In this document: in pieces, positions 22,474-23,666 of the stretch
How positions within the stretch are numbered: the first letter of the stretch is position 1
Layout: each line of letters starts with the position of its first letter
From: Candidatus Omnitrophota bacterium
Lineage (GTDB): Bacteria; Omnitrophota; Gorgyraeia; Gygaellales; Profunditerraquicolaceae
DNA length: 64,000 bases
Assembly: GCA_018812825.1 (NCBI GenBank)
Contig: JAHJCJ010000069.1
Location: forward strand, 3,825 to 67,824
Direction of reading: 5' to 3'
Made by a program: the position numbers and the translations under genes
Notes under the pieces: model-generated
The model's database searches: none
What the model saw: only the letters and a program-made list of their open reading frames with translations
Told to the model about the DNA's origin: nothing

Positions 22474-22504
22474 ATTTATTTATCTTAACAGGTCCTGTCG
22501 AGGC

Positions 22505-22645
22505 TTGCCTCTCGCATCACCGCTTGCTCGCCCCAGCGTGGCTCGCTGCGCTCCGGCAAAAATTTCGCTCTGCCTAAACATGTATTATGGGCAACCGTGC
22601 CCGCTCAATTTTTGAGATGCTGCTCGAGTTCAAGCCTCGCCACCC
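22505..22645 (+). repeat. Left arm of an imperfect inverted repeat (about 140 bp) flanking the low-GC HEPN gene; contains the hairpin gggca-accg-tgccc
   Basis: The reverse complement of 23517..23665 aligns to this segment at roughly 70-75% identity. Shared blocks include caccgct, ccccagcg, gcgctctgcct, ggcaaccgtgcccgc and aacaagcc. Confidence 0.55.
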
Positions 22646-22808
22646 GTTAACAAAATTAGAACCCCCACCTTTATTTATTAGAATATACTGTTCTAAATCA
22701 ACAATTTATTATTGACTGCGAAACAGATATTTACGCCCTAGCTTATGGTCTATTGTGCCCAAAACGTACCCATTTTATTTCTATGACAGGGAACAATTAT
22801 AAAAACTT

Positions 22809-23405
22809 TTATTTAATAATATCGTTTTCCCGAATATACTCGTTTAACTTCCGTAAATGTTTATCTAAAAAAGTGTATTTATCTTTAAATGATCGCATAA
22901 AACTGTCATCGAATTTATCTTCTTTTTTTCGACCTTCGTAGTATTCTATATAAAAGGCTTCTCTATCACCATCATAAAATATAGAACCATGCGCTACTTT
23001 GTTTCTAATTAAAATAAGGTCATTTAGATCTTTCCTGACTTGCTTAAAAATGTCGGAAGAAATTACAGATAATTTATCTTTAAAAAAATCAGTGATATCG
23101 GATAGCAATTTTCTTTTCAGCATAAAATTAAAGAATTCTTTCTCCAGAATTAGTCCTTTAAACCAGCCATGCCTCTTGTAATCTTTCCCAAAAAATAAAT
23201 GACATACGCATATGTTGAGGGAATTTTCTAAATCAAGAGAGTCTGCAATAATTATGCTTCTACGATTATTTAATTTATTATAGTCCTCTAAAATCTTTTT
23301 AATATTCTTCGAACACTTTTCATTGGAGTTATGTATTATTACCCCTCCCACATTGTATTCTGATACCGTTTTTGCAGATACAGCAGATCTATTATTTTTC
23401 TTCAT
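22809..23405 (-). CDS. HEPN-domain protein, Abi-like (candidate abortive-infection / RNase-toxin type)
   Basis: 198 aa, Lys- and Asn-rich, low GC. The C-terminal Rx4H motif (IRNKVAHGS) is the HEPN signature seen in the Abi_2/AbiD-F-like families. It has its own SD (aaaggtgag). No cognate MNT or antitoxin ORF is apparent. Confidence 0.5.
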   Translation of the reverse strand: MKKNNRSAVSAKTVSEYNVGGVIIHNSNEKCSKNIKKILEDYNKLNNRRSIIIADSLDLENSLNICVCHLFFGKDYKRHGWFKGLILEKEFFNFMLKRKLLSDITDFFKDKLSVISSDIFKQVRKDLNDLILIRNKVAHGSIFYDGDREAFYIEYYEGRKKEDKFDDSFMRSFKDKYTFLDKHLRKLNEYIRENDIIK

Positions 23406-23516
23406 CGTATACTCACCTTTCTAATTGGAACTAATGAAGTTACTTTGGTGATACATGTATTTCTTAATTAGAGCACCTTGCCCTACGCCTGTTGAATGTA
23501 CTATTCAGCGGATGAC

Positions 23517-23665
23517 TTGGCTTGTTCCGGAGCGCACGTGAGAATTTTGCGCGGGCACGGTTGCCCCGCTAAAAACATCAGGCAGAGCGCAAAATTCTGG
23601 CCGAGCGAAGATTTTCCTCGCTGGGGAAAATCGAGCGGTGCGCGGAGGAACAAGACAAGGCAGAC
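23517..23665 (+). repeat. Right arm of the imperfect inverted repeat flanking the HEPN gene; contains the hairpin gggca-cggt-tgccc
   Basis: See the left arm. It ends 1-2 bp before the queA stop codon. Confidence 0.55.
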
Positions 23666-23666
23666 G

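Follow-up and report, generated by a model that had tools for sequence, protein, structure and literature searches.

A solitary HEPN-type gene between inverted copies of a structured repeat in the variable queA-tgt slot of an Omnitrophota genome

Integron attC sites are 60–140 nt long, lie in direct orientation and form arrays next to intI. In Neisseria, the exchange of minimal mobile elements has been attributed to homologous recombination in their flanks, with no dedicated mobility gene (PMC3787668, PMC1797815). HepS, encoded by the Gifsy-1 prophage, is an abortive-infection system made of a single HEPN protein (PMC13043305). In the Candidatus Omnitrophota DNA described here, the interval between queA and tgt resembles the Neisseria elements in that differing, often low-GC accessory genes lie between two core genes, and it departs from them in the addition of a structured repeat of fixed polarity and in an architecture that recurs at many sites (PMC3787668, PMC1797815). 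The present occupant of the interval encodes a 198-residue protein, ORF198, which belongs to a different family from HepS, has no detectable sequence relationship to it and lies outside a prophage (PMC13043305). Our preferred reading, over which we are about evenly divided, is that the HEPN gene stands alone, is of a defence or toxin type, and lies in a variable slot that is delimited by repeats and driven by recombination.

The window, that is, the whole stretch of DNA analysed, is 64,000 nt long with a GC content of 0.42. The slot is bounded upstream by queA (23667..24659, minus strand; Pfam Queuosine_synth, E-value 2.8e-123) and downstream by tgt, the gene for queuine tRNA-ribosyltransferase (21361..22473, minus strand; Pfam TGT, E-value 3.8e-162). 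Between tgt and queA lie 855 nt at 30% GC, and the low-GC insert noted here in a preliminary description is evident from the local composition, which is 0.28–0.30 over about 22650–23450 and about 0.42–0.49 on each side. Two full-length copies of a repeat, which we call E, form the arms of the cassette. The tgt-side arm (22483..22652, plus strand; CM R1 143.9 bits, E-value 7.8e-37; nhmmer E-value 1.4e-34) has its 5' end 10–13 nt from the tgt start codon, and its folding (canonical) strand is the plus strand of the window, antisense to the genes. The queA-side arm (23503..23675, minus strand; CM R1 151.6 bits, E-value 6.8e-39; fold z-score −7.4) overlaps the queA stop codon with its 5' end and has the sense strand as its folding strand. 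A third E copy, internally deleted and retaining the closing stem only, is present in another intergenic region of the window (17657..17728, plus strand; CM R1 22.7 bits, E-value 1.6e-4), and an E fragment occupies the equivalent place in a related genome (L008, 4864–4918).

The gene for ORF198 (22809..23405, minus strand; GC about 0.29) is preceded at 7 nt from its start codon by a Shine-Dalgarno sequence, AAGGTGA (23413..23419, minus strand), found by direct reading. Upstream of the gene, on the 3' side of the queA-side arm, is a non-coding inner flank (23406..23502) in which a promoter scan gave background signal only. The other non-coding inner flank (22653..22808), on the 3' side of the tgt-side arm, forms the 3' UTR of ORF198.

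The Rx4H motif reported in the preliminary description, RNKVAH (R134..H139), is well supported: R134 and H139 are invariant among 61 relatives, conservation reaches at least 90% at A138 and G140, and E60, K97 and G140 are nearly invariant. The AF2 model (pLDDT 91, pTM 0.84) has a confident HEPN-like fold, a helical bundle that resembles solved HEPN domains, with a three-stranded beta insert following the Rx4H motif. In sequence searches ORF198 fell under the threshold for each of the Pfam HEPN families. RiboL-PSP-HEPN (PF18735) came out at 16 bits (E-value 0.012) against a gathering threshold of 28.4, and weak matches to this family were found in 27 of the 61 relatives, the best with an E-value of 1.8e-5. 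The proposed Abi-type membership was not borne out, since ORF198 has no match to Abi_2/AbiD-AbiF (PF07751), which 4 of the 61 relatives match at E-values of 0.042 or more, and none in PADLOC; NCBIfam likewise gave no match, and PHROGs gave noise. A sequence-profile search of the PDB returned spurious helical matches only, with HEPN absent. Relatives had to be collected by exhaustive search, a word-indexed protein search having recovered nothing beyond a fragment of this gene. The family is rare, with 147 representatives, and has no Pfam model; it is best treated as a HEPN family that Pfam does not yet model. By analogy with single-protein systems, ORF198 is a candidate single-protein abortive-infection nuclease and a predicted RNase.

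No nucleotidyltransferase or antitoxin partner had been seen beside this gene, and we agree, as ORF198 is the sole ORF of at least 70 aa between the arms, its neighbours being queA and tgt, and the gene pair of a HEPN-MNT system is not present. An RNA partner encoded in cis, also suggested earlier, finds little favour: Tandem Repeats Finder detected no tandem repeats, Rfam gave no match, a tRNA scan for such signals found nothing, and one relative of ORF198 is tightly packed, with gaps of 0–10 nt to the neighbouring genes. No conserved ncRNA of the AbiF or type III toxin-antitoxin kind was recognised beside the gene. The ORF198 gene occurs on only three contigs, at one and the same locus each time. 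Its nearest relative (45% identity) is found in an island that has two tyrosine integrases and no E repeats, and further relatives are each inserted singly among housekeeping genes. On this distribution and its low GC content, ORF198 counts as an accessory gene gained by horizontal transfer.

E is a dispersed, palindromic, Y-shaped structured repeat of Omnitrophota, about 170 nt long, with two internal hairpins. A search for further copies of the arms, with or without cargo, had been recommended and was productive: matches to the E core pattern occur in at least 120 metagenome stretches, and nhmmer found 143 copies over 124 loci. Viral contigs searched for the core contained no copy. Rfam gave no match over positions 21000–25000 at an E-value of up to 1 or over the whole window at gathering score, so the arms do not belong to a known RNA family, and E is a previously undescribed repeat family. 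Its fold is under selection: compensatory change is evident at 38 of 45 pairs, a value exceeded in 0 of 500 shuffles, and the pairing rate is 81% of cells, as compared with 66% in shuffles. As the Y fold is kept through compensatory change, something reads the structure of E. Within the pairs G-U outnumbers A-C (281 vs 117), an excess that tells which of the two strands folds. In 111 copies, GGGCA is covariant with a CUGCC located upstream of it, and ACCNUGCCCGCUC is invariant and unpaired. The hairpin of gggca with tgccc proposed for the arms is not the pairing that has been conserved; that stem was the sole terminator-like site in a promoter and terminator scan which did not rise above shuffles, and covariation does not support it. 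The termini, TTAGCGGG...CCCGCTAA, are complementary and covary.

Most E copies (112 of 126) are intergenic and about 80% are solo, the solo copies being oriented with transcription in 42 cases and against it in 29. Solo copies carry 105–137 nt of extra non-coding DNA on their 3' side. Only four weak 5'-terminal remnants of decayed partners were found beside them, all on the 3' side, and most solo copies are therefore genuinely solo. The 5' flank is rich in T and the 3' flank in A; the two are complementary to each other rather than directly repeated, and no target-site duplication was seen at single copies or pairs. E thus has the short, non-coding, multi-copy character and complementary termini of a MITE and lacks the target-site duplication; it is a selfish or structural element of MITE/REPIN-like type. 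An intrinsic terminator was ruled out, the U-tract being absent after the stem in both orientations. The Y shape also led us to consider a retron ncRNA and AAV-like terminal hairpins, both rejected on the lack of an RT or Rep gene and on the high copy number. Other hairpin repeat families, R2 and R3, gather at E junctions too and can replace one arm.

Comparison of the queA-tgt interval in related genomes confirms that the two genes normally lie adjacent, as the preliminary description had stated, with a gap of 5–116 nt in many relatives. The whole range is 5 to 3653 nt, and the contents of the slot are of at least six unrelated kinds. The cargo, unrelated to ORF198, is a 236-aa ORF in L011, a 145-aa ORF in L007, a 280-aa ORF in L213, and DUF5677 with ORF6N in L020. 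The empty site that had been sought in related genomes is found in L012-14, which contain nothing, and L010 retains one arm and a 30-nt stump. The interval is therefore a variable slot flanked by core genes, as in a minimal mobile element, and has no mobility gene. The inner flanks of the window have counterparts in L095, another variant of the slot beside tgt, with an unrelated cargo ORF. On the tgt side the flank is partly kept, positions 22652–22695 matching L095 2694–2738 at 87% with similarity continuing towards 22780, and on the queA side 23468–23505 aligns with L095 850–887, just inside the E(+) copy of L095.

The existence of inverted arms, reported at the outset, is beyond question given the CM scores above; their identity had been put at 70–75%, and it is 58% over the full length (101 of 174 columns), near the E family mean of 63%, with BLAST aligning 67 nt at 75%. 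They share an exact 16-mer, where chance alone would give 0.2 copies. The tgt-side arm is 85% identical to the L011 copy at the equivalent position, and the queA-side arm is 80–82% identical to the L010 copy that follows queA. Paired E partners come from different subfamilies and are no more like each other than random copies are, and one L007 arm is a mosaic, a chimera of two E subfamilies. Because the arms agree far better with copies at the same position, where the cargo differs, than with each other, we infer that the arms are old and the cargo young, and that the arms were older residents of the site rather than duplicated on the arrival of ORF198. Older arms would also follow from a slot in which cargo is swapped by recombination with no enzyme in the cassette. 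The suggestion that arms and gene are mobilised as a unit fits poorly with relatives that keep the arms (80–85% identical) around unrelated cargo, and with a nearest ORF198 relative that sits in an integrase island without E.

Ten close inverted E pairs (up to 2.5 kb) were found at no fewer than eight different sites. Their 3' ends face inward in 10 of 10 and no pair has the opposite polarity, a 10:0 ratio with about p=0.001 if orientation were random, the ten pairs not being fully independent as two of them, those of the window and L095, represent the slot next to tgt in variant form. The DNA inside the pairs has a GC content of 0.29–0.34 and consists of unrelated small ORFs or of AT-rich spacers of 20–116 nt, and at orthologous sites both the solo-E and the filled states occur. 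The same cargo was not found at two different E sites, nor does any unit of arms and cargo recur elsewhere flanked by a duplication, as it would in a TIME-COMP. Within the pairs we found no transposase or recombinase. Among 427 ORFs within 1.5 kb of E copies (124 loci, genome fragments) no transposase, recombinase or RAYT gene is enriched, and the genes that recur are all housekeeping ones. Three loci have an ORF6N gene near E, two of them being the same site. Neither E subfamily nor arm position follows a consistent rule with respect to the 3' end of the cargo gene. Judged from these comparisons, variable DNA gathers on the 3' side of resident E copies. The carrier had been called MITE- or attC-like; the first term suits a MITE-like family whose inverted pairs with variable cargo recur, and the second does not suit inverted arms with no integrase within 10 kb.

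In the model that we prefer, ORF198 would be a stand-alone RNase of HEPN fold, inactive until a trigger such as phage infection, by analogy with single-protein HEPN systems, and when triggered it would cut RNA through its Rx4H site. Its gene sits in a hypervariable queA-tgt slot delimited by two inverted E copies with their 3' ends towards the cargo. Cargo may be gained, lost and swapped by recombination in or beside the arms and in the core-gene flanks, with E copies possibly serving as portable homology for the exchange; the cassette encodes no enzyme for it. The model was drawn from comparison of diverged metagenome contigs. Stretches of 30–170 nt with 60–85% identity are poor substrates for RecA, which counts against it, and the uniform polarity of the pairs is unexplained by homologous recombination alone. 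E could also have a role at the RNA level, which would lie outside this model.

The fixed polarity could be accommodated if a non-autonomous transposon of composite or foldback type had the arms as its long, structured terminal inverted repeats, with a transposase acting in trans on the outer 5' ends and moving arms and cargo together. The outer ends are alike in all ten pairs, the empty doublets with 20–116 nt spacers look like deletion derivatives, E is multi-copy with complementary termini and presence/absence polymorphism, and there are precedents (PMC4133298, PMC3934969). We nevertheless regard this as unlikely, because target-site duplications are absent at single copies and pairs, each cargo is known from one site only, the queA-tgt arms stay in position as the cargo changes, partners come from different subfamilies and are no closer than random copies, and no transposase lies in or near the 124 loci. 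About equally doubtful, in our judgement, is the proposal that inverted E pairs are a new Omnitrophota gene-capture cassette, in which an enzyme or hairpin-dependent repair inserts foreign, often defence-type genes at the 3' end. Such cassettes would be integron-like mini-islands, scattered, integrase-less and polarity-locked, with the fixed polarity and ACCNUGCCCGCUC as their signatures. The stricter version, in which E is the recombination site of integron-like capture and a recombinase in trans recognises the folded single strand and inserts genes at its 3' end, seems to us highly improbable. It would account for a fold kept by covariation and not by sequence, for a G-U asymmetry that points to one folding strand, as in attC, and for variable DNA lying always 3' of E, including the extra 105–137 nt at solo copies; the invariant unpaired ACCNUGCCCGCUC could be a putative protein-binding site, and the cargo is of small low-GC ORFs of mostly unassigned function. 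However, the copies that bracket cargo are inverted where cassette arrays have direct ones, no integrase was annotated in the 10 kb on either side of the window cassette and none is enriched around the remaining E copies, most copies are solo and scattered instead of arrayed, and no attC core sites were identified in E.

Selection on the fold, with its strong covariation and one-strand G-U excess, would also suit an RNA element. A transcript running from queA to tgt would carry E and its reverse complement around ORF198, and the duplex might insulate, process or silence the HEPN mRNA, or a transcript of one arm might be an RNA partner or antitoxin. The stop codon is followed immediately by the queA-side arm, which reads in the sense orientation, and both canonical directions of a pair point into the cargo. 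Yet E is mostly solo and unlinked to HEPN genes, in both orientations (42 sense, 29 antisense), ORF198 relatives elsewhere lack E and one of them is too tightly packed to accommodate an RNA gene, a U-tract terminator is missing, the promoter signal is at background, and tandem repeats of the ToxI type are absent; we think this reading very unlikely. Only slightly more credit is due to coincidence, that is, an ordinary acquired gene in a hot spot, flanked by two unrelated insertions of a common repeat, with no functional meaning to the pair. The arms being no more alike than random E members, the collection at the same junctions of R2 and R3 repeats able to replace an arm, and the preponderance of solo copies (about 80%) all agree with it. 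It is at odds with the 10:0 polarity (about p=0.001 if orientations were random) and with the recurrence, at several independent sites, of low-GC cargo inside pairs.

The Omnitrophota, a large uncultured phylum, carry in E an abundant and previously undescribed 170-nt structured repeat, whose pairs, always of one polarity, mark variable islands of one to three genes between housekeeping genes. If E helps to capture or exchange genes, it would provide small genomes with a compact, integrase-free means of shuffling defence and toxin genes, and E pairs would then be a practical flag for novel accessory genes in metagenomes. ORF198 founds a HEPN family outside Pfam, encoded by a lone gene and with about 150 representatives.

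The E pairs resemble TIME-COMPs (PMC4133298, PMC13367494) and a MITE-flanked integron (PMC3934969) in having two short non-coding repeats with complementary ends around passenger genes and no transposase inside. MITE-bounded composites have defined short inverted repeats, target-site duplications and a known transposase family (PMC4133298, PMC13367494, PMC3934969), whereas the E pairs have no duplications and no transposase, and they further differ in arms from different subfamilies, a fixed polarity and a turnover of cargo between stationary arms. Like REP/REPIN and ERIC sequences, E consists of multi-copy intergenic imperfect palindromes just past stop codons, in both orientations, with internal indel variants and inverted doublets. 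REP/REPIN are palindromes of 20–40 nt with a RAYT gene; E, at about 170 nt, forms a Y with two hairpins inside it and has a motif that is invariant and unpaired, and no RAYT-like gene was seen in the E loci (genome fragments). With integron cassettes, attC sites and CALINs the E cassettes share small promoter-poor ORFs of unassigned function, structured repeats whose fold is conserved over sequence, and a single folding strand, and unlike attC the cargo-side copies are inverted, mostly solo and scattered, with no integrase nearby. ORF198 itself resembles RiboL-PSP-HEPN, MAE_28990, Apea, Swt1 and Abi_2 in its alpha-helical HEPN core and in an Rx4H motif near the C-terminal part, and it is set apart from RiboL-PSP-HEPN and its sister families by its own conserved E60 and K97 and by the beta insert after the motif.

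In the window, tgt (21361-22473, minus strand; Pfam E=3.8e-162) and queA (23667-24659, minus strand; Pfam E=2.8e-123) are separated by 1193 nt, and all genes in the region lie on the minus strand. The sole substantial ORF in this gap, ORF198 (22809-23405, minus strand), encodes 198 aa and is preceded, at 7 nt, by the Shine-Dalgarno sequence AAGGTGA. Across approximately 22650-23450 the GC content drops to 0.28-0.30 from about 0.45-0.50, and the 855 nt between the flanking arms (tgt-side, 22483..22652, plus; queA-side, 23503..23675, minus) have a GC content of 0.30 versus 0.42 window-wide. 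The low-GC HEPN-type insert with inverted arms reported between queA and tgt in the preliminary description is confirmed, with corrections, and the interpretation given there is supported in part. Identical proteins are encoded in the MAG GCA_018824865.1 (Candidatus Omnitrophota), and the Tgt relatives are annotated as Omnitrophota. ORF198 sits in foreign DNA within a hypervariable slot.

A word-indexed search with ORF198 returned nothing beyond a fragment of this gene, and an exhaustive phmmer search returned 147 representatives, mostly of 180-200 aa. Relatives are lone genes amid housekeeping genes with neighbours that are not conserved. Among 61 aligned relatives, R134 and H139 of the Rx4H motif are invariant and E60, K97, A138 and G140 nearly so. 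ORF198, called Abi-like earlier, is not an Abi_2 member. It scored 16 bits on RiboL-PSP-HEPN, below the cutoff of 28.4, and had no match in PADLOC or NCBIfam. Weak RiboL-PSP-HEPN matches were found for 27 of the 61 relatives; 12 matched MAE_28990, 6 Apea and 4 Abi_2. As proposed earlier, ORF198 is a HEPN gene that stands alone; its HEPN-fold family has no Pfam model. The closest relative, P0122 (45% identical), is located in an island (L220 188-5778) with two tyrosine integrases, a 189-aa ORF without assigned function and a 633-aa HNH-endonuclease-like protein, and its gene has a GC content of 0.30 versus 0.40 for the locus. A cis-encoded RNA partner, also suggested previously, was not seen; neither tandem repeats nor tRNAs were found around ORF198, and Rfam gave no match. 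The lone HEPN protein HepS was reported to be sufficient as a complete abortive-infection system (PMC13043305). ORF198 would be a putative RNase with a defence function.

The arms align as reverse complements and share an exact 16-mer, GGGCAACCGTGCCCGC (0.2 copies expected by chance). Alignment upheld their reported relation and lowered the identity estimate to 58% over the full length. Folded on its own, each arm has a long closing stem that encloses internal hairpins (z-scores −7.2 to −7.4 for the queA-side arm and −1.0 to −3.1 for the tgt-side arm), and an Rfam search of the arms gave nothing at E<=1. The search for further copies revealed a dispersed family, E. Its degenerate core pattern matched at least 120 metagenome stretches and no viral contig, and a profile built from these matches identified 143 copies, of which 123 are near full length, spread over 124 loci; related MAGs also carry copies between queA and tgt. 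Conservation ends sharply at TTAGCGGG...CCCGCTAA, with AT-rich flanks. A covariance model of E gave 151.6 bits for the queA-side and 143.9 bits for the tgt-side arm of the window and found a third copy at 17657-17728, of 72 nt, internally deleted to the closing stem only. This copy is intergenic, 3.6 kb downstream of tgt, and an E fragment occupies the equivalent place in a related genome (L008 4864-4918).

Termini and stems of E covary, for example TTAGCGGG/CCCGCTAA, TTTGTGGG/CCCACAAA and TGAACGGG/CCCGTTCA, and of the 24 pairs that RNAalifold predicts on 111 copies, 23 show compensatory changes. For a Y-shaped structure of 45 pairs, the fraction of cells that pair is 81%, versus 66% in shuffles and at most 45% once partners are slid by 1-3 columns; both-sided change occurs in 38 of the 45 pairs, which 0 of 500 shuffles exceeded. 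Since G-U pairs outnumber A-C pairs 281 to 117, one strand of E is the folding strand. The conserved pairing is not the previously described GGGCA/TGCCC hairpin: in six independent variants GGGCA covaries with a CUGCC located upstream, and ACCNUGCCCGCUC is invariant and unpaired. Both arms thus belong to a dispersed family of structured repeats.

Most E copies are intergenic (112 of 126), with median distances to the nearest gene of 24-37 nt from the 5' end and 105-137 nt from the 3' end. About 80% are solo copies, with few partner remnants beside them. The copy at L007 3745-3915 is a mosaic in which a 5' half of L020 type joins a 3' half resembling the tgt-side arm of the window, and is evidence for recombination among family members; a truncated terminus of another copy lies just outside it. 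Nearest-alike copies at orthologous sites are oppositely oriented (L143 1205-1378 versus L195 13238-13412; L132 versus L144/L105), and on this comparison the asymmetric interior may be able to invert between the palindromic stem arms (flip/flop). An ORF6N/Rha-like DNA-binding gene is found 40-70 nt from E at L020 4833-5363, L126 1419-1946 and L176 6935-7435, with copies 91% and 50% identical; this link may be chance, two of the three loci being one site.

As previously stated, queA and tgt are normally adjacent, and gaps of 5-116 nt separate them in relatives (L012-14, L017-19 and L022, among others). In the variable-gap clade, where Tgt is 84-93% identical to that of the window, the gap of L010 (252 nt) holds one E and the 30-nt stump left by a second copy in inverse orientation; that of L011 (1.7 kb) a short E derivative, a 236-aa ORF, E and a flavodoxin-like gene; that of L007 another palindrome, a 145-aa ORF, the mosaic E and a flavodoxin-like gene; that of L213 a palindrome of a second family (R2), a 280-aa ORF, E and a Gp49/HTH_3 toxin-antitoxin pair; that of L020 (3.7 kb) E, DUF5677, a 162-aa ORF, the ORF6N gene, an E stump and a flavodoxin-like gene; and that of L009 a DUF2971 gene. 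ORF198 is absent from all of these slots. The Gp49 (HigB-like) and HTH_3 (HigA-like) pair (L213 4300-4998, L215 219-808, L219 316-615) marks a second sub-slot between E and tgt, with Tgt there 93% identical to that of the window; this sub-slot holds a 158-aa flavodoxin-like gene in other relatives and nothing in the window.

The tgt-side arm is 85% identical between the window and L011, and the queA-side arm 80-82% between the window and L010. Roughly 40 nt inside each arm are shared by the window and L095, whose cargo differs. The arms therefore predate the cargo and outlast it. Comparison of the relatives' slots did not support the earlier idea that arms and gene are mobilised as a unit, and E was absent from the loci of ORF198 relatives examined (single-gene loci and L220). 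Elsewhere, orthologous flanks enclose either solo E or E-cargo-E (L132 versus L144 and L105; L143 versus L195), or one arm is replaced by another hairpin repeat (L115 versus L104; L169 versus L188), and in each of these sites the variable DNA is at the 3' side of the resident E.

Polarity-locked E pairs around low-GC cargo recur. The inner DNA of the pairs in the window, L132, L169, L129, L189 and L095 is 0.6-1.9 kb with a GC content of 0.29-0.34 and contains 1-3 unrelated small ORFs; the L143 pair encloses a pilin-like gene, and those of L115, L137 and L209 only an AT-rich spacer of 20-116 nt. DUF5677 and a pilin motif are the only Pfam matches among the cargo ORFs. The housekeeping neighbours differ (leuS, argC/rpsI, argS, ttcA-like, carA-like, amidohydrolase), so the sites are mostly independent of each other; tgt adjoins both the window and the L095 pair.

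The R2 family comprises long-hairpin repeats of about 190 nt, GGGATATTG...GCGTGCGAAAATTTTCG...CAATATCCC (L213 2906-3100, L007 2872-3100, L188 905-1075, L104 1004-1213), which can stand at a slot boundary in place of one E arm, for example directly after queA. The same junctions also collect other, unrelated structured repeats, namely R3 and a hairpin rich in GC, GGGGCATC...GGGGAAAC (L195 13413-13689; L009 4781-4990; 100 nt upstream of tgt in L011/L009), and the genomes compared there appear to hold several hairpin-repeat families. Within the window, a 92-nt segment occurs twice (20535-20626 and 47186-47276; 93-94% identity), each time on the minus strand and immediately preceding a gene, rplS in one case and purA (adenylosuccinate synthetase) in the other. 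The two copies share a fold of two hairpins (z −4.1 and −3.6) and show a compensatory A-U to G-C difference, and neither matched Rfam; the segment could be a shared structured leader.

We propose that cargo turns over via recombination within or beside E and the core flanks. Because the outer stem arms of E are alike in both reading directions, a segment flanked by E could be exchanged for the interior of any E copy already in place. Coincidence is one rival explanation; opposite-orientation pairs within 2.5 kb have their 3' ends inward in 10 of 10 cases and their 5' ends inward in 0 of 10, about p=0.001 under random orientation. A composite transposon mobilised in trans is another; no transposase or recombinase was found by Pfam among the paired-E cargo ORFs, and no direct target-site duplication was seen around E. 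A third would be integron-like capture; of the MITE- or attC-like carrier envisaged in the preliminary description, the carrier-like repeat stands and the attC likeness does not. Control at the RNA level is the remaining rival, and E is oriented sense to neighbouring genes in 42 cases and antisense in 29.

Among known systems, TIME-COMPs and MITE-bounded composites (PMC4133298, PMC3934969) are comparable to E pairs, although not in all respects, and REP/REPIN-type repeats resemble E without fully matching it. The Neisseria minimal mobile elements (PMC3787668) are comparable to the queA-tgt slot, and attC cassettes to E-bracketed cargo, but neither in every respect.
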